Shown here: in pieces, positions 6,855 through 59,736 of the stretch
Layout: each line of letters starts with the position of its first letter
Position numbering within the stretch: position 1 is the stretch's first letter
Origin: an uncultured Bacteroidaceae bacterium
GTDB lineage: Bacteria > Bacteroidota > Bacteroidia > Bacteroidales > SM23-62
Direction: 5' to 3'
Length of the DNA stretch: 64,000 nucleotides
NCBI GenBank assembly: GCA_963777115.1
Contig: CAVZPP010000003.1
Coordinates: forward strand, 774,250-838,249
Translations under genes and position numbers: made by a program
The notes under the pieces: generated by a model
Told to the model about the DNA's origin: nothing
What the model saw: only the letters and a program-made list of their open reading frames with translations
Databases searched by the model: none

Positions 6855-6866
6855 ATCTGGTTTTTC

Positions 6867-43430: not shown

Positions 43431-43438
43431 TATTTTTG
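43431..43438 (+). promoter_or_regulatory. candidate promoter for the tRNA gene (-7 TAnnTTTG with -33 TTG)
   Basis: TATTTTTG at 43431-43438, with TTG at 43408-43410 (20-nt spacer). It lies about 80 nt upstream of tRNA position 1. Confidence 0.4.
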
Positions 43439-43517
43439 CGCCCACGTCCAAAATCATTCCGGGCACACACACACTCCCTTTACCCCATAATGGTGAAACC
43501 TACACACATGCATTCTC

Positions 43518-43591
43518 GGGCCCATAGCTCAGTTGGTTAGAGCATCTGACTCATAATCAGGGGGTCGCTGGTTCGAGCCCAGCTGGGCCCA
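43518..43591 (+). tRNA. tRNA with CAU anticodon (elongator Met or lysidine-type Ile2; acceptor stem favours Ile2)
   Basis: Manual cloverleaf fold gives acceptor GGGCCCA/TGGGCCC, D arm GCTC-AGTTGGTTA-GAGC, anticodon arm TCTGA-CTCATAA-TCAGG, and T arm GCTGG-TTCGAGC-CCAGC. G1:C72 rules out an initiator. C4:G69 and C5:G68 match the known TilS determinants of E. coli tRNA-Ile2. Confidence 0.9.
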
Positions 43592-43603
43592 CTTAATAAT
43601 CAA

Positions 43604-43636
43604 CCACTTACAATTCATTTTGTAGGTGGTTTTTTC
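43604..43636 (+). terminator. rho-independent terminator after the tRNA
   Basis: 9-bp stem CCACTTACA / TGTAGGTGG with one G-U pair, a 8-nt loop, then a T6 run. Confidence 0.7.
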
Positions 43637-43674
43637 TTTGGCGCCAGTTTCTTGCCAGGATTTGGGTGATGAGG

Positions 43675-44157: not shown

Positions 44158-44256
44158 TATCGAAAGTACAGTATATAACTTTGATTATGCACAGTCTGGA
44201 ATTGCACCAATGGAGCAGGAACGATTCAATAATAAAACCGTAATGAACTGCATAAT

Positions 44257-45110
44257 TTAGACAGATTCATATTCCTTTTCATAAAGAGGTACAATAATTT
44301 GATTATCCATCCTATTAGCCGATTCAGGATCATGAGATGGAAGGTAGACAGTAGGGAATTTCTTGGTGAATTCCTGGATCTTTACAAGTGTATCCTCAGA
44401 ATCATCGGTACCCACTCCATCTGGTATCCCATTTATCATATTGTCTCTCTGAATAGGAGGCGTCCCCGGCCAGGAAATAATAAATACCGTCCATTTTCAC
44501 GATCACTGACATATGTGTAGCTACATGACCTGGGGTAGCCACTATCATAATCGAACCATCATTTGTTAACGATAGCGACTTTTCAAATGGGCCAAATGGT
44601 TGGTTTTTTAAACTTATCAATGTTGGTTTTAGCCATTTTGGCCATCTATGAGGTAGGTAACCACCCATGATACCTGTTAAACCGCTGGCTGAATTAAACT
44701 CATCTTTCTCAATAAGAAATTCAGAATTTGGAAAGTGATGCATTCCGCCCGCATGATCTGTATGTAAATGGGTCATTATTACTTTTCCTACATCTTTCTC
44801 AGGATCAATCCCCATCTTTGAAAGTTGTGGGCCAATTTCCTCTTCGGGTTTTACATCGAATTGTACGGCCATGGAATAATATGGGTGCCATTTGGGCAGA
44901 TAGCCTTTAGTGCCTGTTTTATGCGTTTCTCCGGTATCCACTACAAATATAGCCTTCATCGTGTTCAATTAACCAGGCATAGATTGGCAACCAATCTGAC
45001 CATTGTTTATCAAAAAAGACTTTGGTTAGTTTTGGGGCCATTCCATTCGCCTTGCTAATTTGATTCAGTTTTACTTTGACTCTTCCTGTTTTTATTCTAT
45101 GAATTTTCAT
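44257..45110 (-). pseudogene. MBL-fold N-acyl-homoserine-lactonase-like hydrolase, two frameshifts
   Basis: Three consecutive ORF pieces in different frames reconstitute one protein: ...LPIYAWLIEHDEGYI / FVVDTGE...MTHLHTDHAGG...FLAGDASYSERQ / INGIPDGVG...TVYLPSHDPE. The frameshifts lie near 44950-44960 and 44436-44445. Confidence 0.8.
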
Positions 45111-45131
45111 ATCACTTTAATTTATTGATGA

Positions 45132-45725
45132 TTAATTCTTCTTATTTCTAACTAAGGCTCCTTCAAGAAAGATCTTTGATATTTCTGCATACAGATCTTG
45201 ATTTGTATAATTGACCTTGTTAAACTGATCCGCATCGACAGTCATTTCCGTAAGGTTGAAATACACTTTCATTAAGATTTCAAGATCAATGTCTTTTCTT
45301 ACTGCTCCTTCAATCACGCCATCATTGAATAGTTTTCTGTAGTAGGTATCAATACGATATTCTCTTCCTTTTTCATAATATTCCCAGATTTCCGGAGTGT
45401 AGAGTTTTAAATCTTGAAGAAACTCCTCATTGATCTCAGTCAGGGTGTTTTTGGTAAATTCAACTACAGAATTCAATTTTCCACAAAAGGATAAATCATT
45501 ATCATTGATAATATCTTCAAGACGGTTATTAATTTCATTGTTAAGTTGATCGATGACAGCTTTAATAAGATCTTCCTTGGTTTGATAATACTTGTAAATT
45601 GTGCTCTTGCTGGTTCGCAAATCCTTGACGATACTATCAATGGACATCCGATTAAATCCATACCTGAGAAATTTGCTTCTAGCTACAGCCAGTATCCTTT
45701 GGTTTTGGTCTTCACTCTTTTTCAT
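45132..45725 (-). CDS. TetR/AcrR family transcriptional regulator
   Basis: 197 aa with the N-terminal HTH RILAVARSKFLRYGFNRMSIDSIVKDLRTSKSTIYKYY. Confidence 0.9.
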   Translation of the reverse strand: MKKSEDQNQRILAVARSKFLRYGFNRMSIDSIVKDLRTSKSTIYKYYQTKEDLIKAVIDQLNNEINNRLEDIINDNDLSFCGKLNSVVEFTKNTLTEINEEFLQDLKLYTPEIWEYYEKGREYRIDTYYRKLFNDGVIEGAVRKDIDLEILMKVYFNLTEMTVDADQFNKVNYTNQDLYAEISKIFLEGALVRNKKN

Positions 45726-45739
45726 GTTGAATAGCGCTA

Positions 45740-46198
45740 TTAAATATGAACAGACCTTCCATCTGGCAGAATCGTCTTCCCGTTTTCTAATAAATCCTTT
45801 AGATTATGCAGGTTATTGGATACCGCTGTTTTCATCTTGTTTTTAAGCAATCTTTCAAGTATTACAGGTGAACCTGTATCAACTTCAAATGTGTCATCAA
45901 GATGTGTCTGATCGTTTACCTGATTCAATTTGAATGTCCTCCTAAATTTAGGACTTGAATTATCTATGGTTTCAATAGCAATAAGACCCGGAGGATTATA
46001 TTCAATAACTTTAAACTTCTGCTGATCATTTTTTCGAATTTGATGGTAGATTGTTCCTGGTCCATCAATATTTGCAGAGACCTTCTTTACACTCTTCACA
46101 TAATAATTCCACAAGGGTACGTTTTCAAATTGCTCGATAAACTTGAATGTATCTTCAATTGATTTATTAATCTTTAGCTCGTTCTTAATCTGTATCAT
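45740..46198 (-). CDS. SRPBCC family protein
   Basis: 152 aa with a START/SRPBCC-like pattern (INKSIEDTFKFIEQFENVPLWNYY). First gene of the minus-strand operon. Confidence 0.65.
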   Translation of the reverse strand: MIQIKNELKINKSIEDTFKFIEQFENVPLWNYYVKSVKKVSANIDGPGTIYHQIRKNDQQKFKVIEYNPPGLIAIETIDNSSPKFRRTFKLNQVNDQTHLDDTFEVDTGSPVILERLLKNKMKTAVSNNLHNLKDLLENGKTILPDGRSVHI

Positions 46199-46216
46199 GA
46201 GTCATATTTTTAATAT

Positions 46217-46249
46217 GTACTAATAGTACTAAATACGTATTAACAGTAC
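46217..46249. promoter_or_regulatory. palindromic operator-like sites upstream of the SRPBCC-TetR operon
   Basis: GTACTA-A-TAGTAC (46217-46229) is a perfect 6+1+6 palindrome. AATACGTATT (46232-46241) is a perfect 10-bp palindrome, and a third GTAC lies at 46246-46249. All are 19-51 nt upstream of the operon start codon. Confidence 0.5.
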
Positions 46250-46518
46250 AAATATAATAAACAATATATTATAAATCAATTGATTATCACTATTTTACAC
46301 GGCCTTATTTAAAAACAATTTGTTTAACTTATAGTATAACAAGCGAATACAGAAATCACTATTTATATAAAAGATCTCTGGTTACATACTATGGGGTGAT
46401 TACCCTCAGCATTTTGCAAGGGTTAATCGATACAAGACAGGATAGAGTCCCAGTGAATACAGATAATCGGATTAATTGCGCAAATGGCTAAAAAACAGGC
46501 ATTTAGGAATTATTGCTA

Positions 46519-46573
46519 ACTCATAATCAGGGGGTCGCTGGTTCGAGCCCAGCTGGGCCCACTTAATAATCAA
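46519..46573 (+). repeat. direct repeat: 3' 43 nt of the tRNA(CAU) plus 12 nt of downstream sequence (att-like)
   Basis: Identical to 43549-43603 (ACTCATAATCAGGGGGTCGCTGGTTCGAGCCCAGCTGGGCCCA+CTTAATAATCAA). No tRNA 5' half lies upstream. Confidence 0.9.
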
Positions 46574-46609
46574 GGAGTTACAACGTAAAAATTGTGACTC
46601 CTTTTTTTT
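46574..46609 (+). terminator. rho-independent terminator-like hairpin after tRNA fragment 2
   Basis: 10-bp stem GGAGTTACAA / TTGTGACTCC with one G-U pair, an 8-nt loop, then T8. Confidence 0.6.
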
Positions 46610-46688
46610 CGCCAGTTTGGTGCCAGGATTTAAGTATGAGATAGGTGGGAATTGACACCATTTATCATGTCATAGGCCCAGAAGAGGA

Positions 46689-46850
46689 TTACAGTTGCGT
46701 TACATCATCATTATCATCAAATGGTGCATCATAATGTACATCGCAGCCATTAGGACATCTCCAGACAATTTGAGTTTTTTTTGAGTCAGGTACTTTTTCC
46801 TGATGTTGAATCATAGTCGTACCACATACATTGCAAGATCTTTTTTTCAT
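46689..46850 (-). CDS. 53-aa zinc-ribbon protein (below ORF-track size cutoff)
   Basis: Manual translation gives MKKRSCNVCGTTMIQHQEKVPDSKKTQIVWRCPNGCDVHYDAPFDDNDDVTQL. It has CxxC...CxxxC spacing and an acidic tail. It is the only ORF in a 490-bp gap. Confidence 0.45.
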   Translation of the reverse strand: MKKRSCNVCGTTMIQHQEKVPDSKKTQIVWRCPNGCDVHYDAPFDDNDDVTQL

Positions 46851-47095
46851 TCTGTTATACTTGTTAATTCAATACAAGAAACATCATCAGACTGGTTTTT
46901 AACACTATAAAGCTAGGATGTTTTAGAATAATGTCAAATTCTGATACTGAATCCTTCCAATGAATTCCTTACTCAATCGGAGAGTTTGGTGGTAGAAAAG
47001 ACCATTCTACAAGTCATGATCTTCCCGATAATCCGTATTTTTATGGACCCCACTTGCGGGAGAATAACAGTGAATCATCGGGAAACTTACCGGAA

Positions 47096-47608
47096 ATGAA
47101 ATACGCACTTGTATGTGGTAAAAAAACAGAGGCCTCAAAAGGAGCCAAAGGTGTTTGTCCTAGTTGTGGATCTGAATTAATTGCCAAATGTGGTCAAGTA
47201 AAGGTGAATCATTGGGCACATAAGGGAACTCGGAATTGTGATCCTTGGTGGGAAAATGAAACGGAATGGCATCGAGAGTGGAAAGGACATTTCCCCACTG
47301 ATTGGCAAGAAGTGGTTCATAAATCAGATACAGGCGAAAAACATATCGCCGATGTAAAAACTGAACAGGGTTGGGTCCTGGAATTTCAACACTCATTTCT
47401 AAACCCGGAAGAACGCCTTTCGCGGAATACATTTTACCCCAAATTAGTATGGGTCGTCGATGGTCTTAGAAGACAGAGGGATCAGCAGCAGTTTCAAAAG
47501 ATATTGGAGGAAAGTGCAGTCATAAACCAAAAACCTCTTATCCGAAAAGTCAACTTTCCGGATGAATGTAGTGTAAATCTTCAGCCTAATCTGGACAGAT
47601 TGGTTTAA
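47096..47608 (+). pseudogene. CoiA-like competence-family nuclease, 3'-truncated by IS insertion
   Basis: MKYALVCGKKTEASKGAKGVCPSCGSELIAKCGQVKVNHWAHK has the CoiA N-terminal zinc-ribbon/H-x-A-H pattern. WH.EWK and HIADV...VLEFQHS form the nuclease core. The native sequence stops at ...KVNFPDE, and the last 13 codons read into the IS left end. Confidence 0.7.
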
Positions 47609-47657
47609 AAATTAAGAGATAGAATTCTTAAATTTCTAACCATTAAAAGTACAGAAA

Positions 47658-48009
47658 ATGAATCAAAAGAAACAGACCGCAGAATCCAAGGTCAAAGAGA
47701 TCCGCAGACACACCAGGAAAAAGTACTCAGCAGAAGAGAAAATCAGAATCGTTATTGAAGGACTTAGAGGTGAAGTCAGTATTGCAGAGTTATGTCGCAG
47801 GGAGGGAATCAATGCCAACTTGTATTACAACTGGAGCAAGGACTTTCTGGAAGCTGGCAAGAAGACGATTAGCTGGTGATATCAAACGGGAAGCCACCAC
47901 ATCGGAGGTACATTACCTGAAAAACGAGAACAATGAACTCAAGCAGCTTGTTGCAGAATTAAGTCTTGAGCTGCGCAAGAATAAAAAAAACACCACTGGT
48001 TCCGAGTAA
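47658..48009 (+). pseudogene. IS3-family transposase OrfA (HTH_Tnp_1 type), one frameshift
   Basis: ...INANLYYNWSKDFLEAGKK|RLAGDIKREATTSEVHYLKNENNELKQLVAELSLE is continuous only if one A is removed near 47861-47866 (GGCAAGAAGACGATTAGCTGGTGAT). Confidence 0.8.
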
Positions 48010-48020
48010 ACTACAGGTAT

Positions 48021-48993
48021 ATGAGACGCAGTGCAAGTGAGAAACTTGAGATCATACGGATCGTTGAAGGCTCAGAACTGGGAGTCAAACGTACCCTGGA
48101 AGAACTGGGCATCAATCGAAGTACATTCTACGAGTGGTATCGTAATTACCTTGAATCATGGTTTAGAAGGCTTAAAACCAAAGGTTCCTGTCAGGAAGAC
48201 TTTTTGGAACAAGATCCCTGAGAAAGAGCGCAACAAGGTTGTTGAATTTGCTCTTGAGAGGCCTGAATTATCACCCAGGGAACTGGCCTGTCATATTACC
48301 GATAATAAGGGCTGGTTCATTAGTGAATCCAGTGTATATCGGATACTGAAACAGCGAGGACTGATTACAAGTCCTGCCTGGATCGTCATGGCAGCGGCTG
48401 ATGAGTTTAAAGACAAAACCAGTCATATCCATCAGCAATGGCAGACTGATTTCACCTACTTTAAGATCATTGGCTGGGGATGGTATTATCTGGCTACTAT
48501 CATGGATGATTACTCCCGATATATCATTACCTGGGAGTTGTGCAGTAATATGGAAACCGATGATGCAAAACGTGTTGTTGGAGAAGCTATTCTGGAATCT
48601 GGTATTAACAAGGACCAACGCCCCAGGTTGCTAACTGATAATGGATCTTGTTATATCTCAGGTGAGTTTAAGAAGTTCATTGATGAAGTAGATCTTGGGC
48701 ATGTACAGGGAGCTCCTTATCATCCTCAAACTCAGGGAAAAATTGAGCGCTATCATCGAACAATGAAGAATGTGGTGAAGCTGGAAAATTACTTTTTCCC
48801 TGACCAATTAAGGGCAGCCCTTGAATCTTTTGTTCATTACTACAATAATGAGCGATACCATGAATCTCTTGAAAATATGACTCCTGCTGATGTATACTTT
48901 GGCAGGGCAAAGCAGATTAAATCGTACAGACATCACATCAAAATGAAAACCCTAAAAGAAAGGAGGAAGATCAACAAAAAAATGTTAGCTTGA
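48021..48993 (+). pseudogene. IS3-family transposase OrfB (HTH + DDE rve integrase core), one frameshift
   Basis: MRRSASEKLEIIRIVEGSELGVKRTLEELGINRSTFYEWYRNYLE is in one frame. HGLEGLKPK...WQTDFTYFKIIGWGWYYLATIMDDYSRYI...TDNGSCYIS...ERYHRTMK is in another. The shift lies near 48150-48160. Confidence 0.85.
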
Positions 48994-49096
48994 TACTATT
49001 GAATTATTGAAAACTCTGCTGAGTTTACAACAATCCAACAGTTCATAATCACATCAAAATCAAGTAATTTGAAAAAGTGAAAACTATCTCTTAACT

Positions 49097-49741
49097 TTAG
49101 GTAACAATTTGTCCAGGAGTATTAGACTTTAAACAAGCATAACCCAATCCACCTCCCTCAAAATATAGGTACTGGTACCCTGAAGAATCAATTGAACCCT
49201 GAACTACTTTATTTTCATCTCTAAGACTTCTGGATTCAGTATCCGGCAGATCCGGATCAGAAATAATTGTTCCATCGCCAAACTTGAATGGTCCTTCAGG
49301 AACATATACCATTTCAATCCCAAACACCTTAAAATCCGGATGGATTATAATTTCCGGATTTAGCGTTACGTTCAAAGTAATATTCGTCACCGGTACATTT
49401 CCAGTAAAATCATTTTCATTTCTAATGAAAATGCCCACACTGTCTTCTTCGGTAATGATTTCCAGATCCCCTTCAGCTATTCCTCCTGTGATTGAAGCAG
49501 GTTCCCAGGCTATTCCATTGTCAGGACGGTATTTCACAAATACCCAGACCGCATCATGAAATCGTTCGGTCTGGCGCCAGGAATTTTTCCAGGAAACATC
49601 GAACGAGACCTGGGTATAATCAGCATTTGGTGTCACATTTGTGATTTCTAATCCGTTGCCCAGAAGGCTGGAGCATGGGAGGGATAATAAAAGGATCAGT
49701 GGTACGATTGTTTTCATTGGATTCTTGAATTTATTATGCAT
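49097..49741 (-). CDS. truncated paralog of the SUMF1-like protein (signal peptide, N-terminal domain and first ~60 aa of the FGE-like domain)
   Basis: Residues 28-149 align colinearly with residues 21-142 of the 513-aa protein at 53251-54792 (GNGLEITNVTPN...HDAVWVF.KYRPDNGI.WE...HPDFKVFGIEMVYVPE). Similarity continues weakly to CLKSNTPGQIV vs CMKYPITQGQFV, then stops 64 bp from the IS right end. Confidence 0.6.
   Translation of the reverse strand: MHNKFKNPMKTIVPLILLLSLPCSSLLGNGLEITNVTPNADYTQVSFDVSWKNSWRQTERFHDAVWVFVKYRPDNGIAWEPASITGGIAEGDLEIITEEDSVGIFIRNENDFTGNVPVTNITLNVTLNPEIIIHPDFKVFGIEMVYVPEGPFKFGDGTIISDPDLPDTESRSLRDENKVVQGSIDSSGYQYLYFEGGGLGYACLKSNTPGQIVT
49295..49660 (-). repeat. dispersed duplication, copy 1 (N-terminal domain coding segment)
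   Basis: Nucleotide-level similarity to 54367-54732, including a near-identical core CATCATGAAA(T/C)CGTTCGGTCTGGCGCCA. Confidence 0.8.
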
Positions 49742-49756
49742 TTGGATGGGTTTTAA

Positions 49757-52700
49757 TCAATAGTGCACGATGATTTTACTTTGATGTATTTTTTCACTAC
49801 CGGTTTCCCTGAACCGCACAACATATACGCCGGGGTCAAGCCTTCCGGCCAGTTGAACTGTTATTCTTTCTTCATCTCTTACATTGAGTTCATATGTTGT
49901 TCTTCCATTCATGTCTATGAATTTCAGACGGCCTTGTTTGACTCTTTCAGGAAATGTAATATTCAGAGGACCACCGGTAACAGGATTCGGGTAAAGCTGC
50001 AGATCGCTCAGGCGATTTATCTCCTTAACTTCTGAAACGACCTTTGGATTCAGGTACTCAGCGTTTGAGTATCCGTCTCCCATTCCGCCACCGTAAATAT
50101 TAAATGTGTTCTGGTTAACCAAATGTTCCAGGCTGTAACCATCTCCGCTTCCGCCTTCATAGATGGAAAAGGTTTCAGCATTGGTAAAGCCTTGATTTAC
50201 ATAGCCATCTCCGGAACCGCCGGGGTAAATGCTGAATTCGGCAGGATTCACAAAATTCCTCCTGGCATATCCATCGTCCCTGCCCCCTGAGTATATATTA
50301 AATACATTGGTATTCAAATGATTAACATACGAGTAACCATCACCCCTACCTCCGGAATATATTTCAAATGAATTTGAATTAGTGTATTTGTCAATATTAT
50401 AACCATCTCCGGCACCTCCGCTGTAACCAGACAAAGCGGTGATGGTAACATTGATATCATCAAAAGACGCACAACCTCCCCGGGTGATAAGATCCAGTGT
50501 GTAATATCCGCTGCTATAAACATTGATGCTACCGAGGCTGTCTCCGGTGCTCCAATCATAAGTGTAATAAGGATCAGCTGGTGCAATAAGGGATATACCG
50601 CCAATCAGGCTGGTATCATTGCCAAGTGAAAAATTCAGTGGCTCTTCAAAGATCACGGAGACGGAGTCTGTCATAGATCCTCCGAATTTTGTAAGGGCAT
50701 GAAGAGAATACGTGCCGGAAGTTGTTACCATCAGGGTATCATTGGTACTCCCGGTATTCCATTGATATTCCATAAAACCCGAAGGTACAGTAAGTATAGT
50801 GGTATCTTCCTTACAATCATACAATGTATTCGGTAAAGCAATGGGATCAAACTCACATATCCGGGGCAGAGAATCGAATTCAAAAGCGGCGATGCCGTAG
50901 CTTACCGAGTTCCCGGCATGTGTAAATCCTCCCACAATAAATAATTCATTAGCTAGCAACACAAGACCATTTATTTCAGTATGGTAGGTGGAGGCTGGAC
51001 TCGCTGCTCCATCAATACCCCCTCCTACGGGCCAGATTTCGCAACCATCGTACATTGCAAGATTCAGTATATCAACGCCGTTAACAGAGGTGAATTGCCC
51101 TCCCAGGTAAACAATGCTGTCATTCATGACATGGATGGAATGTATCTCGCGTTGTTTGCCGCTTGCACCCTGTTCAAATTCGGCAAATGGGAACCATCTT
51201 TCACCGTTCCATGATCCCATACCGGCACTTTCCACCCTTGATCCATCTCCATTATAGAGATTCTGAAATCGACCGGCAACAATTATGTTTCCTGTATGGG
51301 GATCCCTGTCAATGTCCATTACCTGACCTTGTATCCCGTTCCCAACACTGAACCAGTTTCCATCCACATATTTTGCTATTGCTCTGCAGGCTGTATTCCC
51401 ATCGATGGATGAGAAATTTCCACCCACGTATATAGCTGAATCCCCATCGTTAAAGACAACAGGAATTTCACTCGCTCCTGCATCCCCCAATGACTGCCAG
51501 GTACTGCCATTATACAATGCCATGTTTGTTGCACTGGTGCCGTCTACCTGGTTGAAATAACCCGTGATGACAGGGTTTCCCTGGTAAAGGTCAATGTCTC
51601 TCACCCAAGAGGAAGAACCGGGCGTTCTTGTGACGCCGCTTCCAAATCCCTGCCACTGTCCCGTGCTGAGATCCAACATGGCCAGATTAATAGCTGTGAC
51701 ATCACCAGCCTGGGTGAATCTTCCTCCAACGTAGAGGGTATCCCCCTGAAGATGCAGGGCATAAACTGTAACCCAGGAGTATCCTCTTGACAAACCTCCG
51801 GCCAGATCAGACCATTCCCTGGTAAGCGGATCGAAGATGGCAAGACCTTTGGCGGGCCCGCCGTCAAATCCGGAAAATGAACCACCTACAATCAGTTTAT
51901 CATTCCATTTCACCGCATCATAAATAATGGAATTATCACTCCATATGCCTTTGCCCAATGCGTCCCATTGCTGGCCGTCCCATGCCGCCAGATTATTGGC
52001 CAGACCGGTACCAGCCTCATCAAAAACACCCCCTGTATAAATACTGTTCTGAAAGCGCTGAATGGCATTCACGCTCAAGTGATCCCCCCGCAAGCCCCCG
52101 TTGAGGGTATCGCCAAGCCATTTATCTGCTACAGGATCATAAATCCCGATCCCGTTTCCAACGGTGGCAAAAGTATCTGCAGAATAATAAGTCTCCTGAT
52201 GATTGAAATTACCTCCTACATAGAGCTTATTGTTAACAGTGTCTTTGGTAATAGTATTTACATCAAAACTATGGCCTCCCCGCTGGCCAATCCCGCCAAT
52301 GATGGTCCAGGATATGCCGTCAAAGACAGCAAAACCACGATTTACTTCTGAGGGCATGGTGCTATTGGTCCCAAATTTTCCTCCGGCATACATCCGGTCG
52401 CCTGCGGCATCGTAGTAAAGTGATTGAACCGTGGAGGATTGGGCATCTGCTGATGGCCAGGGCTTGTATATGAGTCCTCCTCCGGCTTCTTTCCATTCTC
52501 CGATGGATGGGTCCCAGATGGCGACACTGTTTATATTTACGCTGTCGGATTTGACATCGTAAATATTGATAGATCCACCCACAAACAACTCATCATCTGC
52601 ATTACTTTCCAATGCATATACAATACTTTCAGTGTTAAAAATACTTCCTACGCCTCCGCCGACATCCGACCATTCCAGTGTATTAATATTCAGGGCTGCT

Positions 52701-53251
52701 ACTTTGTAAACATCCAGTGTGGAAGAGTCGGGTTGTGTCACGCGGTCTAAACCCCTGCCTCCGGCATAGAGGGTATCCCCGATCATCTCCAGGGCCAAAA
52801 TCCGAAAAGCATTGATACCGTTCGAGATGGATTCAAAGGATTCCGTGCTTATATTCCAGCGAATTAGATTTTCAGAAGGAACATATGATCCATCTGAATT
52901 GTATGCACCTTTAAAAAACCCGGCAATGTATAACATACCGTCATTTCCCATGATCATGGTTTCCAGGTAACCCCGTCCGCAGGAAGGGCAATGAAAGTTA
53001 CCTCCAAGTTTTTCATACCGTACACCGTCCCAGCGGACAAATTGTCTTTTCCCCGGATCGCCCCCAAACTCACCGGCCCAGGAATTGTTAATGATGTAGA
53101 GGTAATTCTCATCCGCCACCATGGCAGTGATATCTCCCTGGCTGATGCCCGGCATCATAAATTCAGTACTCCAAATGCCATCAAGCTGGGCATATATGGG
53201 AGTTATGCCGGAGAACCAAATCAATATGAAAAGAATTCTGACTAACTTCAT
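49757..53251 (-). CDS. 1164-aa secreted beta-propeller repeat protein with T9SS C-terminal sorting domain
   Basis: A signal peptide is followed by 12 or more repeats of the (L/I)(Y/F)(V/A)GG.F....G type (LYAGGRG, LFVGGSI, MYAGGKF, LYVGGNF, IYTGGVF, LIVGGSF, LYVGGRF, IYVGGNF...). Two Y.W(N/S)TG Ig-like modules and six 21-aa GGxGDGY repeats follow. The C-terminus LQLYPNPVTGGPLNITF...KIIVHY is typical of T9SS type A CTDs. Confidence 0.85.
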   Translation of the reverse strand: MKLVRILFILIWFSGITPIYAQLDGIWSTEFMMPGISQGDITAMVADENYLYIINNSWAGEFGGDPGKRQFVRWDGVRYEKLGGNFHCPSCGRGYLETMIMGNDGMLYIAGFFKGAYNSDGSYVPSENLIRWNISTESFESISNGINAFRILALEMIGDTLYAGGRGLDRVTQPDSSTLDVYKVAALNINTLEWSDVGGGVGSIFNTESIVYALESNADDELFVGGSINIYDVKSDSVNINSVAIWDPSIGEWKEAGGGLIYKPWPSADAQSSTVQSLYYDAAGDRMYAGGKFGTNSTMPSEVNRGFAVFDGISWTIIGGIGQRGGHSFDVNTITKDTVNNKLYVGGNFNHQETYYSADTFATVGNGIGIYDPVADKWLGDTLNGGLRGDHLSVNAIQRFQNSIYTGGVFDEAGTGLANNLAAWDGQQWDALGKGIWSDNSIIYDAVKWNDKLIVGGSFSGFDGGPAKGLAIFDPLTREWSDLAGGLSRGYSWVTVYALHLQGDTLYVGGRFTQAGDVTAINLAMLDLSTGQWQGFGSGVTRTPGSSSWVRDIDLYQGNPVITGYFNQVDGTSATNMALYNGSTWQSLGDAGASEIPVVFNDGDSAIYVGGNFSSIDGNTACRAIAKYVDGNWFSVGNGIQGQVMDIDRDPHTGNIIVAGRFQNLYNGDGSRVESAGMGSWNGERWFPFAEFEQGASGKQREIHSIHVMNDSIVYLGGQFTSVNGVDILNLAMYDGCEIWPVGGGIDGAASPASTYHTEINGLVLLANELFIVGGFTHAGNSVSYGIAAFEFDSLPRICEFDPIALPNTLYDCKEDTTILTVPSGFMEYQWNTGSTNDTLMVTTSGTYSLHALTKFGGSMTDSVSVIFEEPLNFSLGNDTSLIGGISLIAPADPYYTYDWSTGDSLGSINVYSSGYYTLDLITRGGCASFDDINVTITALSGYSGGAGDGYNIDKYTNSNSFEIYSGGRGDGYSYVNHLNTNVFNIYSGGRDDGYARRNFVNPAEFSIYPGGSGDGYVNQGFTNAETFSIYEGGSGDGYSLEHLVNQNTFNIYGGGMGDGYSNAEYLNPKVVSEVKEINRLSDLQLYPNPVTGGPLNITFPERVKQGRLKFIDMNGRTTYELNVRDEERITVQLAGRLDPGVYVVRFRETGSEKIHQSKIIVHY
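50042..50431 (-). repeat. six tandem 63-bp coding repeats (21-aa unit F.IY.GG.GDGY........N...)
   Basis: YSGGAGDGYNIDKYTNSNSFEI / YSGGRGDGYSYVNHLNTNVFNI / YSGGRDDGYARRNFVNPAEFSI / YPGGSGDGYVNQGFTNAETFSI / YEGGSGDGYSLEHLVNQNTFNI / YGGGMGDGYSNAEYLNPKV. Confidence 0.85.
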
Positions 53252-54792
53252 TAGCGTATGCCTCTGCCGGATACGTACATGTCGACTCTTGTTTTCCCAT
53301 AACTAGGGTGTTGAATGTCCCTGTAAAAAAGAAGTGCTTTAATTTCGGATACATTCGTTTTAAGCAACCAGAGGTGATGCAATGTAATTCGGGGCCCATT
53401 CTTATATGTTAAAGCTCTCTCGGTGAGAAGGTATGGGATGACCGGATCCCCGTTCCCCAGATAGAGATGATGTCCCGAACTATAATAAGATATCGATTCA
53501 ATGGACAAGACCAATTCTTTTCCATTTCCACTCAGGTCAGAAATGCCCCAGAAGGATTTTCCGGAGGAGGAACGATTATCCCCCGGGTCAGCTGATATTC
53601 CTGCACGATAGTATAGTGGATGCTGTTCACCTATTTTGTGCCAGAATCTGGGTGGCAGTTCTGTAGTGACTGAAAATCTCTCATCGGTAGTACCTGCATC
53701 AATCAGAGACGGAGGTTGAATAGAATGTGAATGTCCCCACGCATATTCATTTTTTACGGGTTTCATCGGTCCCCTGCAAGCTTTTTCATACTGCATTTCA
53801 TTCATCGGCGCCAATCCGGACCAGAACAGAAATGAAAGCATTGGGTAGATGAATGCCGAATCATATGCAGGGGATGCAAAATTGAAATTTAACACAATAT
53901 CCTTACCATCATTTGGTTCATTGAAAATTCCATTGCGATTCAGGTCATTAACAAACAGAACCGGGCTGTTTGTGGTCGTATCATCCGTTGTAATGTACAC
54001 TCCCTGACGGTAATTACGTGAGGTATCATGAATAAATTGGTTTTGATTATAATGATTGAAAATATCTCTGCCCAGGGCTGTTCTTTGATCCTGCTCCGTC
54101 AGACAATTCAGAAAATCTACAAACTGACCCTGGGTAATCGGATATTTCATACAGTAGAAATCAGAATATCCTGTTGACATTGCAGAGGAAGGGATTACAA
54201 AATCTTCCTCATGCATGCCTTGATCATTGAAAAATTCCAAGGTCACCTTTTCACTGTCTATAAACTGACTTATATGCGACGAGTCGCGGAAAAGGGAGAA
54301 GTATTCATTATTTTTATCCACAATTTTTCTGTTGATTGCACTGTTGTCTCCATAGTAAAAACCTTCTTCAGGAACATATACCATTTCAATTCCGAATACC
54401 TTGAAGTCGGGGTGAATGGCAATTGCCCGATCCAGTGAAACATCCACCGTGACATTGGTTGCAGTCACATCTCCTGTGAAATCTGCCGCGTTCCGCAGGA
54501 ATATGCCCACACTGTCTTGCTGGGAGATCACTTCGAGATTACCATTTGTTGCACCGCCGGTCAAGTGTGCATGTTCCCATCGTATTCCATTGTCGGGCCG
54601 GTATTTGATAAACACCCATACTGCATCATGAAACCGTTCGGTCTGGCGCCACGAGTTTTCCCAGGAAATGTCAAAGCTAAGTTGCGAGTAATCTTCATTG
54701 GGAGTAACATTTGTTATTTCAAGTCCGTTGCCGTAGGAATGAACTAAAAATGACAAAAGTCCCGCTATCGCTAAATATTTTTTGAAATTCAT
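53251..54792 (-). CDS. secreted SUMF1/FGE-sulfatase-fold (GldJ/GldK-like) protein with a novel ~120-aa N-terminal domain
   Basis: 513 aa with a signal peptide and no lipobox. FGE-fold landmarks appear in order: FGIEMVYVPEEGFYYGD, FYCMKYPITQGQFVDFL, WSGLAPMNEMQYEKACRG, YAWGH, SFWGISDLSGNGKELV, and a terminal SGRGIR. Its stop shares one base with the ATG of the downstream 1164-aa gene (TAATG). Confidence 0.7.
   Translation of the reverse strand: MNFKKYLAIAGLLSFLVHSYGNGLEITNVTPNEDYSQLSFDISWENSWRQTERFHDAVWVFIKYRPDNGIRWEHAHLTGGATNGNLEVISQQDSVGIFLRNAADFTGDVTATNVTVDVSLDRAIAIHPDFKVFGIEMVYVPEEGFYYGDNSAINRKIVDKNNEYFSLFRDSSHISQFIDSEKVTLEFFNDQGMHEEDFVIPSSAMSTGYSDFYCMKYPITQGQFVDFLNCLTEQDQRTALGRDIFNHYNQNQFIHDTSRNYRQGVYITTDDTTTNSPVLFVNDLNRNGIFNEPNDGKDIVLNFNFASPAYDSAFIYPMLSFLFWSGLAPMNEMQYEKACRGPMKPVKNEYAWGHSHSIQPPSLIDAGTTDERFSVTTELPPRFWHKIGEQHPLYYRAGISADPGDNRSSSGKSFWGISDLSGNGKELVLSIESISYYSSGHHLYLGNGDPVIPYLLTERALTYKNGPRITLHHLWLLKTNVSEIKALLFYRDIQHPSYGKTRVDMYVSGRGIR
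54367..54732 (-). repeat. dispersed duplication, copy 2 (N-terminal domain coding segment)
   Basis: Partner of 49295-49660. See that entry. Confidence 0.8.
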
Positions 54793-54974
54793 TTTGGATA
54801 AAAATTTGTTTTAGACGCAAATATAACATCATGCTAGAAGGTAAAATTGGAAAAAACGGACAAAAAGACTCAAAACTCTTAAATAGCTTCCTGGTACGTG
54901 CGATTTCTTATTTTTTTGCCTGATTCTGCTTCAAAAACCTGGTTTAATTATACAGGGGAGAGAGTTAAATATAT

Positions 54975-55800
54975 CAGGACCTGACAGAGCCAAGATAACT
55001 TTTTAGAAAGGAATGACCACTTTCAAGGAACTCTGTTGGAGATTGTCCCAGGTAGTTTTTAAAATCGTTAATAAAATGGGGCTGGTCGTAGTATCCGTTT
55101 TCAAGCATCAGGTTCTAATAAGCGGTCTTATTCCCACTTCGTATGGCTTCGAAAACCGAATTAAACTGAATGATTTTACAATATTTTTTAGGACTGATGC
55201 CAATTACCTGACTGAATACCCTTCGGAGCTGTCTTTCACTAACATTAACGCTTGAAGCCAGTTCACTCATCCGAATATTGCCATTCTTTCTCAAAATAAT
55301 ATCCAGGGCATCATCGAGTACATTATTAGGATTTATATCAGGAAGACGCTCAATCAAAACTTCCTGCATTAATTCGGCCAGTTTAAGGGGATCATCGACG
55401 GATGACAAACGTTGACGTAATTGTTTGGCTATCACAGGGATTTTTTACTTTCAGAAAGATACCACTATCCGTAATCTCTCTACCATTAGTATTAAAGAAA
55501 TAACTCATACTGGTAGGAAGCATTTCCAGTCCCACATGTAAGTAATCTCCGTTGAGGGTGAAATAGGGAAATTCTTTATCAAGCTGGCCGACAAGATATA
55601 ATTGCTCATCGGATTCAATTATCAAATTGCTGTAATTTATCCTGATCGGGAAACGGCTGTAGGTAAAAATATGAAAAACCTGTTGGTACAATTGGGATGA
55701 TTTCGTTATTTAGGCCAGAGGCAGTAGTAATCAGTATGCTTCTTACATGATTCGTAATGGCTTCATGCGGAGGATGCACTTCAATTTTTAATTTTTCCAT
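54975..55800 (-). pseudogene. AraC family transcriptional regulator, two frameshifts plus an in-frame TAG
   Basis: The N-terminal part is split across three frames (55615-55800, 55392-55691, 55115-55435). The HTH region ...MSELASSVNVSERQLRRVFSQVIGISPKKY...SGNKTAY*NLMLENGYYDQPHFINDFKNYLGQSPTEF is interrupted by TAG at 55115-55117. Confidence 0.8.
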
Positions 55801-56141
55801 GTGACAACTTTTACTATTTGGACCAGGTTTTGATCAGAATTTCCGTTCACAAGATAAAAGTATATTTACAGGCTTCTATAATACTCCCCATTTCCTTTAA
55901 CAAAGGCCACATTTGCTAAGTTAAACAATTGATTGTTTTGAGTTGCTTTTTTACAGAAGGATAATAAAAAAGGTGCCAGTTTTTTCGCCAGTATTCCTGC
56001 AAATCCATGTAAACCAGTGTAAAATTTTACATAAAATGAACAGTTAATTTTATTGATAAAAACACATAAATCCCTGTAAATGTTGAAGATAACCTCAAAT
56101 AATCCGATTTTTTCGGACCGAATAATATATCGAAAAAAGGA

Positions 56142-56185
56142 GACTCATAATCAGGGGGTCGCTGGTTCGAGCCCAGCTGGGCCCA
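56142..56185 (+). repeat. direct repeat: 3' 44 nt of the tRNA(CAU) (att-like, distal boundary)
   Basis: Identical to 43548-43591. The upstream sequence is unrelated to the tRNA 5' half, and the downstream sequence differs from copies 1 and 2. Confidence 0.9.
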
Positions 56186-56195
56186 CAGTTGATAA

Positions 56196-56234
56196 CCAAC
56201 CACTTGGAGTAATTTCCAGCTGGTTGGTTTTTTT
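56196..56234 (+). terminator. rho-independent terminator-like hairpin after tRNA fragment 3
   Basis: Stem CCAACCACTTGG / CCAGCTGGTTGG (10 of 12 paired), 8-nt loop, then T7. Confidence 0.6.
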
Positions 56235-56451
56235 GTTGGTATAAACCAATGAATAAACATTGTGTGAGGTAGCTGAATAATTTATATGCCGGTGCTCATT
56301 AAGCAAACCTAAGAGAATAATCGACGTAGCCTTCTTTAATATACCTGAGTGAGTCGGGAATATTGCTTCGTATAAAAATGGGACTGCCTGCATGTGCGAC
56401 AGTCCCATTTAAAATTATAAGATTTATATTATTGAATACCTGTAGAGTAAT

Positions 56452-57888
56452 TTACTTGACCAGGATCTTATTTACATTATCACCAACTTTTAGCAGGTAA
56501 ATCCCCTTCTCATAATTCTCAACATTCAGCATCATTCTGTGGCTTTTAACAACCCCTGATTCCACTGTCTGTCCAATCATGTTCATCATCCTGTACTCCG
56601 CATTAAGAGGAGCATTTTCAATGGTCAACTTTCCGGATACAGGATTTGGATAAGCTGTAAATCCAATGCTGACGGGATTTTTAACATTTGTTCCGCTGCC
56701 ACCGCCTACAAGGTCCTGCCATTGTAGGTAGGGACGTGTTTCACCATCAACAGTACCCATTTTCCAGGTACTGGTGAAATCCCAACCGACAAATTTAGCC
56801 TCTACTGCAAAATCAGCAGTAGTCAAACCAACAACATTCGCAGCATTGTCGCCCGAGAAAACACCGACGTCATCTCCGTATTTTTCGTTATCCCAGTAAG
56901 AGGATGTAATGGCTATAGCTCCTGTACTGCCGGCAAAGTTGCCAACTTCCGTTCCATCAACCAATCCGACTGTATAACAATTTTCAATTGCTGCTTCAGC
57001 AGTTTCGCCATTTGTCCTGCCTAATATTCCGCCTGCTTCTTCATAAGCAGTAATTTTGGATACCGTATAGCAGTTTTTTATTGTGGTTGATGTTTCGTGC
57101 TGGCCAACTATGCCGCCTACCCTTCTCTGTACCTCGGTTGCTGCATGTGCAGTAACAAAGGATACACATTCAGAAATGTCTGCAAATCCAGCTCTTCCGG
57201 CAATACCTCCTACATAAAGATTATTCTCGAGAGCATCGCCATCCATTAAAGTGGAGAGGCCATAAAATGTAGCTTCCACCCAAACTCGTCTGATAACGTC
57301 CCTGTTATCTTCTGTTGTATAGGTGGCACGGCCAACCAGGGCGGAAGCAATCGCTCCCTGTTGAAGTGCACGGTAATTCAAGATTCGCAGGTTTTCGATT
57401 GTTGCACCTTCAAGATTTGCAAACATAGCCGTCTTGTTCTCATGAAAGCTACAGTACATATTCGATATGGTATGGTACTGTCCGTCGAAAGTTCCTCCGA
57501 ATCTCTGGTCGTCACCCATGGCGTCAGACCAGGTCCCTATTGGGTACCATCCGTAACTGTCAGCCGAATTGGCAAAGTCAACTATACCATCATTATTCCA
57601 GTCTACTTTGGATGAATCAGGATCAAAGGTAATATCTGCAGCAAGGCGATAATTCCCCAGCATTTTATCTCCGATACCTCCAAAATCCGGTGTACCGTCG
57701 TTATCAGCGTCCAGACTAACTGTATCTCCCAGCCAGATAAGGTCCTCCGGGGTGTCAATATCCCAGTAGTCCACTGATCCCTCAGTTACTTTTTGTAATT
57801 GGTGAGGAGTTTGTCCAAGTAGAATTGTACTACCCAGCAATATGAATGCTGTAATTAAAAGAGTAATAGTAGTTTTCATATTTTTCAT
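56452..57888 (-). CDS. secreted GLUG-motif repeat protein with T9SS C-terminal sorting domain
   Basis: 478 aa with a signal peptide, Asp-rich Ca-binding-like loops (DADNDGTPD, DWNNDGIVD) and GLUG-type motifs (VGGIAGR, VGGIVGQ, AGGILGR). The C-terminus is AYPNPVSGKLTIEN...GIYLLKVGDNVNKILVK. Confidence 0.8.
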   Translation of the reverse strand: MKNMKTTITLLITAFILLGSTILLGQTPHQLQKVTEGSVDYWDIDTPEDLIWLGDTVSLDADNDGTPDFGGIGDKMLGNYRLAADITFDPDSSKVDWNNDGIVDFANSADSYGWYPIGTWSDAMGDDQRFGGTFDGQYHTISNMYCSFHENKTAMFANLEGATIENLRILNYRALQQGAIASALVGRATYTTEDNRDVIRRVWVEATFYGLSTLMDGDALENNLYVGGIAGRAGFADISECVSFVTAHAATEVQRRVGGIVGQHETSTTIKNCYTVSKITAYEEAGGILGRTNGETAEAAIENCYTVGLVDGTEVGNFAGSTGAIAITSSYWDNEKYGDDVGVFSGDNAANVVGLTTADFAVEAKFVGWDFTSTWKMGTVDGETRPYLQWQDLVGGGSGTNVKNPVSIGFTAYPNPVSGKLTIENAPLNAEYRMMNMIGQTVESGVVKSHRMMLNVENYEKGIYLLKVGDNVNKILVK

Positions 57889-58088: not shown

Positions 58089-59717
58089 CTAGTAGTAACC
58101 AGGATTCTGTTCCATAACCGCCCCGGTATTGGCATCGATAACCCCCTGGGGAATCGGGAAAAGATCATTGTGTTCAAAAATGTCAATTCCAACGCCTTCT
58201 ATTCTTGGATTATATTTCACAGTCCATTCCACAAAGACTCCATTCCGGTTAAGATGATACTTTCTGTGCTCTTCGCTGGCCAATTCCCTTGATCTTTCCT
58301 TCAGGATGAATTCAATGTTTACATCTGCTGCCGTAATGGTGGATGCATTTGACCTGCTCCTTATGGCGTTCAGATAGGGGACTGCTTCATCACTTTTTCC
58401 ATCCTTAAACAATGCTTCTGCCAGAATAAGATATGTATTGGCAAGCCTGAGATACATCTCAGATTCCCAGGATATAGGTCGATCAGCATTCTCGAAGATC
58501 TCAGGATCAATATATTCCCATTTGCGCACCCATGGCCAGGTAAAGTTGTCTTCCAGATCAGAATCCTTACTGTAGTTCATGTTGGTCCATTCAACCGTGT
58601 CAAGGACACTTGGCTGTCCAGGTCTGGGGTACAGGTAAAACTTTTTGACTGCATACTCTGAATACCGGTCGTCGAAGGATTCATACCAGCCAAAGGCGGA
58701 ATCTGTAATTGCAGCCCTGCAGCGGCCCCTGCCACCATTATAGAAATACACTGTGTCGGCATCAAGTTTTTTCAATACGGGTCCCTTGGAACTATAGGCC
58801 TGCCACATATTTTTCAGACCCCCATCACGTGACCCGACAATGGATTCATGAGCATTGTTGAATGTCCACAGAACTTCCAGGTTACCGTCTTCACGGCTGT
58901 CATTTGAAAACAGGTCCATAAAAGGCACCCCAGGGTTTGAGGCATTTTTGCCGAATCGTGTGGTCATCAGTTGATATTCACCACTTTCTATCACTCTTTT
59001 TGCTTCAGTCTCTGATTCTGCAAACCTTCCCTGAAGCAGGTACAGTTCTGCCAGGTAATGGCTGGCAACTGCTGAATTCGGAAACCCTGTTTCCTCCACC
59101 ATCGCCAGGTTGTCACGTGCAAAAATCCAATCCTCTTCCATGAGTTTATGAATATCCGCAACAGGGGCTCTATCCCAGTCATTTCGGTAATTCGAACCGT
59201 TTACCTCTTCCTTGTTCAGGGGCACCGGCCCCCATGAATTGGTCAGATGCCGATATGCCCATGCCCTGATTAGCCTGGCCGTTCCAATAATATAACCTTT
59301 ATTCCTTGCCGCTCCTTCTTCGTTTCCCTGCCAGTCAATATCATCCGCGTTGGCCCTGTTGATGATCATATTGGCAGTATTGATAACCTCGTATAGCCAG
59401 GAGAAACTATTCTCCAGGACTTTGGTCTCAGGATTCAACAGGCCATAGTCATTAAAACAATTATGAACGCCGGCAGTGTTATTACCAAAACCCATGTCCG
59501 TACCAATTTTCCAGATGGCAGCATGGCATTCGTGATCATTGGTTGTTTCAAGCCTTACCCGGTCCATCAGTCCATAGATACCATTGGTAAAGCCTTCATA
59601 TGATATATAAAGGTTCTCAGCAAAGATGTCATCTCTCGGAAATTCTTTTAAAAACTTATCTTCGTTGCAGGAAGCAATAAATAGAAAGATTCCAAGAATG
59701 AATATTATTTTTTTCAT
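58089..59717 (-). CDS. susD: RagB/SusD family nutrient-binding outer-membrane lipoprotein
   Basis: 542 aa with lipobox FIASC and a SusD-like TPR core (RLIRAWAYRHLTNSWGPVPL). It lies directly downstream of the SusC-like gene. Confidence 0.9.
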   Translation of the reverse strand: MKKIIFILGIFLFIASCNEDKFLKEFPRDDIFAENLYISYEGFTNGIYGLMDRVRLETTNDHECHAAIWKIGTDMGFGNNTAGVHNCFNDYGLLNPETKVLENSFSWLYEVINTANMIINRANADDIDWQGNEEGAARNKGYIIGTARLIRAWAYRHLTNSWGPVPLNKEEVNGSNYRNDWDRAPVADIHKLMEEDWIFARDNLAMVEETGFPNSAVASHYLAELYLLQGRFAESETEAKRVIESGEYQLMTTRFGKNASNPGVPFMDLFSNDSREDGNLEVLWTFNNAHESIVGSRDGGLKNMWQAYSSKGPVLKKLDADTVYFYNGGRGRCRAAITDSAFGWYESFDDRYSEYAVKKFYLYPRPGQPSVLDTVEWTNMNYSKDSDLEDNFTWPWVRKWEYIDPEIFENADRPISWESEMYLRLANTYLILAEALFKDGKSDEAVPYLNAIRSRSNASTITAADVNIEFILKERSRELASEEHRKYHLNRNGVFVEWTVKYNPRIEGVGIDIFEHNDLFPIPQGVIDANTGAVMEQNPGYY

Positions 59718-59736
59718 GATATATATTTTTTGTTGA

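Follow-up and report, generated by a model that had tools for sequence, protein, structure and literature searches.

Near-obligate pairing between FGE-fold proteins without the catalytic cysteines and a linear repeat of neighbouring secreted proteins

What is a secreted protein with the fold of the formylglycine-generating enzyme (FGE, or SUMF1) for, when its gene lies directly beside that of a type IX secretion system (T9SS) cargo? The question is raised by a 64-kb stretch of DNA from an uncultured Bacteroidaceae bacterium (contig CAVZPP010000003.1, positions 774,250 to 838,249), hereafter the window. Three co-directional genes of the minus strand make up the locus: gene A (53251..54792, from its open reading frame (ORF) and translation), encoding a 513-aa secreted protein of FGE/SUMF1 fold; gene B (49757..53251, from its ORF and its Pfam and NCBIfam matches), encoding an 1164-aa T9SS cargo with an array of short repeats; and gene C (49097..49741), recognised by its identity to A as a truncated paralogue keeping the signal peptide, the N-terminal domain and the start of the FGE domain. 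An earlier note, made from the letters of this DNA, had described the three genes and had proposed that A is a dedicated partner of this one cargo, carried on a tRNA-flanked island. Coordinates and strands are as it gave them and each detail that could be checked was correct, including the TAATG junction at which the stop codon TAA of A and the start codon ATG of B have one base in common ('...cgctaatgaag...'). The gap between B and C is 15 nt.

The genes found beside homologues of A gave the first part of the answer. The closest homologues (40-43% identity, on three long contigs) are each followed by a protein of approximately 1140-1170 aa with a Rax2 match and a sorting domain, and the same order is present in an isolate, Croceimicrobium hydrocarbonivorans (CP060139.1, 1054890-1059879). 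Downstream of distant homologues (about 33% identity) lie small proteins with no match in Pfam, and the sequences 'YEGGAGGGYS', 'YSGGLNEGYA' and 'YIGGSNDGYS' of these small partners are the same motif as that of the C-terminal repeats of B. With this shared motif, the analysis turned from the propeller cargo to the repeat.

For the forward test, genomes were scanned with the alignment of the A family, which provided 80 loci, and the remaining ORFs of at least 150 aa served as background. Most of the arrays escaped an initial regular expression, GG..[DEN]G[YH]; on inspection of the neighbours the core proved to be [YF]xGGxxDG, whose last position varies. The motif [FYW..]xGGxxxG was present in 50 of the 78 downstream same-strand ORFs of the non-redundant loci, versus 71 of 1127 background ORFs. 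Chains of at least three motifs were found in the adjacent ORF of about 31 loci and in only 2 of 1745 non-adjacent ORFs. These two arrays lie 1.5 kb and 2.7 kb from a homologue of A, one of them following a tandem second A gene. In two further loci (L058, L064) the array is immediately upstream of A. When only the loci of the Fibrobacteres-Chlorobi-Bacteroidetes (FCB) group were considered, a motif of the [YF]xGGxxDG[FY] type occurred in a same-strand neighbour at 61 of 69, with three or more repeats at 32 of them.

The reverse test started from the repeat. A degenerate DNA pattern for two copies of the motif, which matched only true arrays in the loci of the forward test, recovered 120 metagenome loci, 74 of them with in-frame arrays of at least three repeats. 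A same-strand homologue of A was detected with the family hidden Markov model (E<1e-5) at 59 of these 74 loci; the gap between A and the array was from -150 to +236 nt in 57 of the 59, and A was upstream in 50. For 13 of the 15 array loci lacking A, the upstream flank is shorter than 1 kb, so that only two testable arrays had no A neighbour. In addition, the repeat region of B used alone as a protein query gave one match, P0121, which starts 3 nt after a 468-aa homologue of A (28% identity, E 2e-50). We attribute the single match to the query itself, because a short, low-complexity sequence scores poorly against 5.8 billion sequences.

All these results evidence a near-obligate, bidirectional, same-strand and often overlapping pairing of an FGE-fold protein devoid of its active site with a repeat motif. 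What is conserved as the partner of A is thus the repeat and not the propeller, and the pair A-B is a single example of a two-gene cassette that recurs in hundreds of environmental bacteria. Thus, the co-occurrence of both genes across genomes, to which the earlier note had tied its proposal, was confirmed in both directions. The idea of a dedicated partner of one specific T9SS cargo stood in part: the secreted neighbour is indeed dedicated and conserved, but the dedication is to the repeat array, while the propeller and the other passengers vary. A pairing peculiar to an island did not survive, as the family is large, with at least 1150 homologues of A among clusters at 90% identity and 1393 representative proteins at 50% identity, among 1.84 billion, matched by a profile of the N-terminal domain. 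The one-base overlap at TAATG and the 4-nt spacing typical of A and its partners fit with co-translation.

The repeat was characterized with 651 units from 105 array proteins. Its consensus is h-[YF]-x-G-G-x-x-D-G-[FY], in which position 0 is Tyr in 49% and Phe in 48% of the units, the Asp is conserved in 88%, and the last position is Phe in 55% and Tyr in 17%; the frequencies at position 0 and at the Asp are far tighter than the search pattern demanded. The period is of 20-28 residues, arrays have from 3 to 29 units (median 5), and conservation of the spacers is poor. The repeats are not covered by any model of Pfam or NCBIfam. In most partners the array comes right after the cleavage site of the signal peptide ('...AQ' before it and 'YNGG...' after it), and in B and its orthologues it is placed just before the sorting domain. 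The passengers comprise propellers, PKD domains only, dockerin-like ends or none at all: a Flavobacterium partner of 1038 aa has nine Ig_7 modules and a PKD domain, and the 206-aa partner of locus L016 is made up solely of five repeats with a signal peptide and a type A sorting domain, the partner of L048 being likewise minimal. In Bacteroidota the partner is usually a T9SS cargo, and the sorting domains of the partners are mostly of type A. The longest arrays reach 29 repeats in an 853-aa ORF (L162 3523-6081, among the long or multiplied loci). A variant repeat, F-x-G-G-x-G-R-G-D-V (L075 7017-8177; L022), has the Asp shifted by one position and contains RGD tripeptides; it adjoins a homologue of A in a metagenome-assembled genome (MAG) of the Flavobacteriales. 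The O-glycosylation site of Bacteroidota, D-[ST]-x, was considered for the repeat and ruled out, the Asp being followed by an invariant Gly.

The composition of the repeat brings in a first alternative, that the array is a subunit of a functional amyloid or of a Ca2+-dependent beta-solenoid, comparable to curli or to repeats-in-toxin (RTX) proteins, with A as a periplasmic anti-aggregation or nucleation factor. The period of 20-28 residues, a Gly-rich turn preceded by alternating hydrophobic residues, and the conserved Asn/Gln further along the unit resemble CsgA of curli, whose repeats are exemplified by 'YQYGGGNSA', and a motif rich in D-G and G-G is like Ca2+-binding turns. However, the AlphaFold model contains no solenoid, no csgB/E/F/G-like genes recur nearby, and a period that varies between arrays, with poorly conserved spacers, does not suit such a structure. 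RTX or beta-roll nonapeptides (GGxGxDxUx) at the 9-residue period were not matched either; what the arrays contain is GGxxDG[FY] at 20-28 residues, 22 in B. We therefore consider this alternative very unlikely.

Protein B itself agrees with what had been noted for it: GGxF propeller blades, two small beta modules (Ig-like in the earlier note), six GGxGDGY motifs and a T9SS sorting domain, all encoded on the minus strand. Its N-terminus, taken from the sequence as a signal peptide, reads MKLVRILFILIWFSGITPIYAQ. Residues ~25-800 (50852..53179) form tandem beta-propellers of about 13-14 GGxF blades with conserved columns; they match the Rax2-type propeller of Pfam (E 6e-20), are confidently modelled, and resemble in Foldseek the sensor domain of BT4673 and the two-propeller enzymes of GH74. 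The two small beta modules that follow (aa ~810-925, 50477..50824) are strands modelled with low to moderate confidence (predicted local distance difference test, pLDDT, 45-86), and their repeated motif, YxWxTG...GxYxL...GC, is kept in the orthologues. Motif scanning delimited the array at aa 938-1075 (50027..50440), with six 22-residue repeats of the form FxIYxGGxGDGYxxxxhxNxxx; the six GGxGDGY motifs start at aa 945, 967, 989, 1011, 1033 and 1055, with an exact period of 22 residues, and span 945-1061. Repeats 2 and 3 read GGRGDGY and GGRDDGY. It is the only such array in the window. The type A C-terminal sorting domain (aa 1086-1162, 49766..49996) scores 29.3 bits with TIGR04183 (cut-off 23) and E 6e-6 with PF18962, and it is modelled as a confident beta-sandwich. 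With a signal peptide and a sorting domain above threshold, B is by its sequence a type A cargo of the T9SS. Five full-length orthologues of B were found; four of them, whose loci were read (L001-L003, L209), are directly downstream of a homologue of A, and the fifth is P0125.

In the model of B the array has a pLDDT of 25-35 and no secondary structure, between flanking domains that are confident. Because only five orthologues inform the region, this lends weak support to an array made of successive linear motifs and not of a folded domain.

Protein A begins with a type I signal peptide, with cleavage between '...VHSYG' and 'NGLEITN'. It is followed by a beta-sandwich of approximately 115 residues (aa 22-135, 54388..54729), modelled with pLDDT >90 and defined also by the family alignment and a domain profile, which has the motif FDISWENSWR...HDAVWVFxKY. 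No Pfam or NCBIfam model matched this domain. Residues W44, W48, D56 and W59 are invariant in the family alignment. The proteins matched by the domain profile are nearly all of 460-530 aa, with the domain at residues ~20-140, and the few long ones that were checked are tandem or extended FGE-domain proteins; therefore the domain can be taken as specific to the A family. The rest of the protein (aa 136-513, 53254..54387) is, by motif alignment, a divergent FGE-type (C-type-lectin-like) domain lacking the catalytic Cys pair, in which the motifs MVYVPxGxF, FYCMKYxITQ, EYEKACRG, EYAWG and LSGN align with FGE. Its match to PF03781 (FGE-sulfatase) is of 21 bits, below the cut-off of 23.3, with E 3e-4 and over aa 210-281 only, but PF03781 is present in most homologues, many above threshold. 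A family profile of 52 sequences matches solved FGEs (E 4e-5) over the EWEyxCRG motif only, and its remote matches include FGE and EgtB enzymes. The structure model (pLDDT 77.7, predicted template modelling score 0.84) contains a confident N-terminal beta-sandwich and an FGE-type domain. The earlier description of A as a SUMF1-type fold preceded by an unrecognised N-terminal domain is in line with the sequence profiles.

The active site is a different matter. A has no Cys after residue 339, and neither a C-terminal Cys column of at least 30% nor a conserved His in the FGE part was found in the 52-sequence alignment, so the copper-binding Cys pair, whose presence or absence had been set out as a check, is absent from both the protein and the family. 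The invariant residues of the family are the structural motifs of the FGE fold together with the Trp and Asp of the N-terminal domain. By sequence, a D/N-rich loop, DLNxNGxxNE, looks like a Ca2+ site. No member of the family has a sorting domain, and a lipobox-like string was detected in only 8 of 120 homologues, the family consensus being a type I signal peptide ('...A' before the cleavage site and 'NNLxIxN' after it). Homologues are publicly named 'formylglycine-generating enzyme required for sulfatase activity', 'SUMF1/EgtB/PvdO family nonheme iron enzyme' or 'hypothetical', and these annotations are generic or wrong. Members of the family were further seen in MAGs placed in Verrucomicrobiota, Planctomycetota, Omnitrophota and Kiritimatiellia, groups that are not known to have a T9SS.

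The FGE-fold proteins that most resemble A are PorK, GldK and GldJ, in which the inactive FGE groove is a docking hub for proteins (PMC12421860). Like A, they are extracytoplasmic FGE-type folds of Bacteroidota without the two catalytic cysteines, and the groove of PorK as a docking surface is the best functional analogy for A (PMC12421860). The possibility that A is itself a part of the gliding or T9SS machinery, its position next to B being incidental or co-regulatory, was considered, as an FGE-like fold without catalytic cysteines, in Bacteroidota and beside a T9SS cargo, would be expected of such a part. However, no NCBIfam family matched A at E<=1, the GldJ and GldK models included; A is not a lipoprotein; and no gldL/M/N-type (porL/M/N) gene was found among the genes profiled next to the cassette, while beside the homologues only regulators recur. 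Furthermore, the family extends to phyla without T9SS, and the adjacency is near-obligate in both directions and hence not incidental. We hold this reading to be hardly credible, and the membership of A among GldJ-, GldK- or PorK-like proteins suggested in the earlier note was discarded. A also differs from these three proteins in its unique N-terminal beta-sandwich, in being encoded beside a variable cargo gene and not in a gldKLMN/porKLMN operon, and in its conserved partner, which is a short linear repeat, PorN and GldN being those of PorK and GldK.

The comparison with FGE itself goes both ways. FGE shares with A the fold, as detected at the level of profiles (E 4e-5), and a location beyond the cytoplasmic membrane and, conceptually, the recognition of a short linear motif in an unfolded client. 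Unlike FGE, A lacks the Cys pair, carries an additional N-terminal domain and scores below the Pfam threshold, and its cognate motif [YF]xGGxxDG[FY] has no Cys or Ser to oxidise, in contrast to the CxPxR of FGE. The genes that were profiled around the cassette include no sulfatase, the remainder of the genome not having been searched; no client with CxPxR was identified, and the repeat partner itself lacks this motif; for these genes the note was right in describing a SUMF1-fold protein without a sulfatase neighbour. What is found here is the FGE fold repurposed for a non-sulfatase client with a concrete motif.

We propose, with a probability of about one half, that the linear repeats are recognised by A, which would serve as a docking or escort protein without catalysis, by analogy with PorK; the two proteins are probably a dedicated recognition pair. 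Both proteins would cross the inner membrane, and A would then recognise the unfolded repeat motifs of its cognate neighbour, much as FGE engages the linear CxPxR motif. It would act as a docking or holding partner, as in PorK, where the FGE groove has become a protein-protein interface, and would keep, escort or organise the repeat-tagged protein before or after its export. The earlier note had suggested an anchoring or maturation factor, and A may be either. Docking is favoured because the copper site of FGE is gone without replacement, because Tyr and Phe swap freely at the aromatic positions, and because PorK, GldK and GldJ demonstrate that the groove of this fold can become a protein interface.

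The main rival of the docking proposal is that A is an enzyme which modifies the repeat (at G-G, D-G or a flanking aromatic residue) in the unfolded array before export, comparable to FGE acting on CxPxR. The genomic signal is exactly that of an enzyme-substrate pair: a tight one-to-one, same-strand and often overlapping pairing is typical of a modifying enzyme and its substrate. The motif, being short, linear, strongly conserved and repeated, is also like a recognition or modification site, and it lies in an array predicted to be unstructured; FGE itself acts on linear motifs of unfolded clients. True enzymes of the FGE superfamily, FGE and EgtB, are among the remote matches of the A profile. 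Nevertheless, the Cu-binding Cys pair is absent, with no conserved His or Cys nor any obvious metal or catalytic constellation; Tyr and Phe alternate freely at position 0 (49% versus 48%), which disfavours a chemistry on Tyr; and no cofactor-supplying or redox gene recurs nearby, only regulators. We consider an enzyme possible although doubtful.

Several points weigh against the docking proposal. An enzyme-substrate pair would give the same gene-neighbourhood signal, and the missing Cys and His may leave room for catalysis by other residues or by a bound cofactor. Lacking a sorting domain, A has no obvious means of accompanying a cargo exported by the T9SS. In the Planctomycetes-Verrucomicrobia-Chlamydiae (PVC) group and Omnitrophota the signal of a partner is weak, as none of their 14 loci has an array of at least three repeats. 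As to the structures, the C-terminal ~80 residues of A are poorly modelled, and a Foldseek search of the A model against the PDB recovered no FGE structures and only weak beta-sandwich matches to the N-terminal domain, so that the assignment of the fold rests on sequence profiles. Finally, the predicted disorder of the array of B is informed by only five orthologues, and repeats that fold only with Ca2+, like RTX, may also look disordered.

The absence of an export or anchoring signal in A can also be read in another way, with the array as a multivalent, scaffoldin-like docking strip holding one A per repeat and the T9SS-anchored partner carrying or displaying multiple lectin-like A domains on the cell surface. 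A would then be the functional molecule of the surface, anchored by its partner. Such a role would suit the minimal partners made of signal peptide, repeats and sorting domain only (L016, L048), the 3-29 repeats per array, and an A without export or anchoring signal of its own. The C-type-lectin fold of FGE type is a known ligand-binding scaffold, as in TvpA of Treponema, and the N-terminal domain has weak cohesin-like structural matches (2vo8, probability 0.96, TM 0.42). However, these matches are weak, a piggy-back T9SS export of proteins without sorting domain is not established, and a one-to-one gene dosage is not obviously enough for many A molecules per array. In addition, the array is N-terminal in most partners and C-terminal in B, so its geometry with respect to the anchor is not fixed. 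This arrangement seems unlikely to us.

A broader reading, which we offer tentatively, is that of a portable tag-and-reader system of FCB-group bacteria, in which [YF]xGGxxDG[FY] tags may be placed on any secreted protein and an FGE-fold reader would either install a new post-translational modification on a Gly/Asp-rich motif, through a catalysis unlike that of the known FGE-family enzymes, or dock multivalently into a scaffoldin-like surface array exported by the T9SS.

Two other kinds of proteins were compared with A. PorP/SprF-like proteins (e.g., SprF with SprB) are encoded by dedicated genes beside T9SS cargo and are needed for the handling or anchoring of that cargo. A is similar in being a dedicated partner gene beside an individual cargo gene. 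However, PorP/SprF-like proteins, beta-barrels of the outer membrane, recognise sorting domains of type B, whereas A is a soluble FGE-fold protein whose partners have mostly type A sorting domains and whose recognised element is outside the sorting domain. The variable proteins of diversity-generating retroelements (DGR), such as TvpA of Treponema, use the FGE-sulfatase fold purely as a binding scaffold. Unlike them, A has a repeat-protein partner, and neither a template/variable repeat pair nor, among the profiled neighbours, a reverse transcriptase. A DGR variable protein as the source of the poorly conserved C-terminus of A was rejected on the same absence of a template repeat and, among the profiled genes, of a reverse transcriptase; the only long direct repeats at 43000-56500 correspond to the A/C paralogy (300 nt, 70%) and to tRNA fragments.

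Beyond the pair, an all-against-all clustering of the neighbours revealed that only A paralogues, the partner and regulators recur, with no recurrent enzyme, cofactor-supplying gene or outer-membrane partner. There were 16 extra copies of A in tandem arrangements; tandem paralogues accompany multiple array genes at L092, L114 and L119, and the metagenome loci with two arrays (L092, L114) have two A genes. The multiplied cassettes (among L119 1-3366, L092 and L114) have A paralogues of 720-830 aa in tandem, two or three of them, or show the order A-array-A-array. At 14-16 loci (L043, L051 and L026 among them) a co-directional pair of genes encoding ~640 aa and ~216 aa lies upstream. In L005 (3260-5850) this pair is a TPR/HisKA_3 sensor kinase and a Response_reg/GerE regulator, and by their sizes and the annotation of L005 the pairs elsewhere are also a TPR/HisKA_3 kinase and a LuxR-type response regulator, which hints at a signal-dependent expression of the cassette. 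AraC or LytTR regulators are found at other loci. In L005, from Phnomibacter sp. MR, a 596-aa protein without Pfam match (6052-7842) is directly upstream of the A homologue. Besides Croceimicrobium hydrocarbonivorans, the cultured carriers are Flavobacterium dankookense DSM 25687, Epilithonimonas hominis DSM 22165, Brumimicrobium salinarum and Phnomibacter sp. MR.

Returning to the window, the third gene is the 214-aa truncated paralogue of A that had been recognised from the beginning: C is 59% identical to residues 21-193 of A (E 2e-70), and its stop codon lies inside the right terminal inverted repeat of an insertion sequence (IS) of the IS3 family (47608..49098, plus strand). This element was identified by the rve, rve_3 and HTH_32 domains of its orfB product and by imperfect terminal inverted repeats of 20 nt (47608-47627 and 49079-49098); its ORFs are at 47755-48009 and 48031-48993, the second with the rve domains, and it is bordered by a CoiA_N-like ORF (47054-47608) and, at its other end, by the truncated C. 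No further remainder of C was found in the window. Given the stop codon within the IS repeat and the lack of a remainder, C is best explained as a second copy of A truncated by insertion and deletion. It would be the remnant of an A copy destroyed by the IS3 insertion, and the layout before this insertion matches that of the metagenome loci with two arrays and two A genes, where the order A-array-A-array is seen.

The flanks of the cassette carry fragments of a tRNA gene. The last 44 nt (43549-43592) of an intact tRNA-Met (CAT; 43518..43592, plus strand), the only tRNA in the window, recur as exact matches on the same strand at 46519-46562 (the inner boundary repeat) and at 56143-56186 (the outer one), and mark off segments of 3.0 kb and 9.6 kb lying in tandem. 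About 70 nt of downstream flank are also common to the first copy and the real tRNA. The A-B-C cassette is in the 9.6-kb segment, bracketed by direct repeats as the exact copies are on both sides of it, and the fragments may have been left by successive integrations at the tRNA. An integrase was not detected: of the ORFs that were profiled in this interval, only the IS3 transposase (rve) came up, and the flank of the outer repeat contained only an AraC pseudogene. By its sequence, the segment looks like a decayed island; the tRNA-flanked cluster of the earlier note is therefore a reasonable description, with its tRNA-Met, two exact 3' copies and no integrase among the profiled ORFs.

The AraC-family pseudogene (54975..55800, minus strand), directly upstream of A, is interrupted by stops and frameshifts and divided over at least three frames, with the HTH_AraC/HTH_18 match on the fragment 55115-55435. 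In the closest loci (L001-L003) an intact 266-aa AraC gene is placed just after the B orthologue. This difference, upstream and broken here versus downstream and intact in the orthologous loci, suggests rearrangement and loss of local regulation. The neighbours profiled in the window were the IS3 element, this pseudogene, a GLUG protein with a C-terminal sorting domain, and SusC/D genes. The GLUG protein (478 aa, 56452-57888, minus strand), just outside the outer tRNA-fragment repeat, combines a T9SS sorting domain of type A with a GLUG motif, and is without [YF]xGGxxDG repeats. Further on (58089-62735, minus strand), a SusD-like gene (58089-59717) adjoins a SusC-like TonB-dependent receptor divided into two overlapping ORFs, 61716-62735 (Plug, CarboxypepD_reg) and 59737-61803 (688 aa, no Pfam match), which could be due to a frameshift, a pseudogene or a sequencing error.

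Full-text searches of the literature for the motif, or for FGE-fold or SUMF1 proteins together with T9SS cargo, yielded only the work on PorK, GldK and GldJ and none on this pairing, and the gene pair of A and the repeat appears to be undescribed. FGE-fold proteins without sulfatase partners are abundant in Bacteroidota and are routinely mis-annotated. What is new here is a large FGE-fold subfamily, of more than 1000 clusters, tied to a specific and unannotated linear repeat in a neighbouring secreted protein, by which the family gains a concrete and testable client. Two sequence features outside the Pfam and NCBIfam models, the N-terminal beta-sandwich and the repeat, were defined, and the cultured carriers make the cassette experimentally accessible. 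If A is an enzyme, it would represent a new chemistry in the FGE superfamily. If it docks or escorts its neighbour, it would be the second case, after PorK-PorN, of an FGE groove serving as a protein interface, and would constitute a new principle of cargo-specific handling in T9SS organisms.

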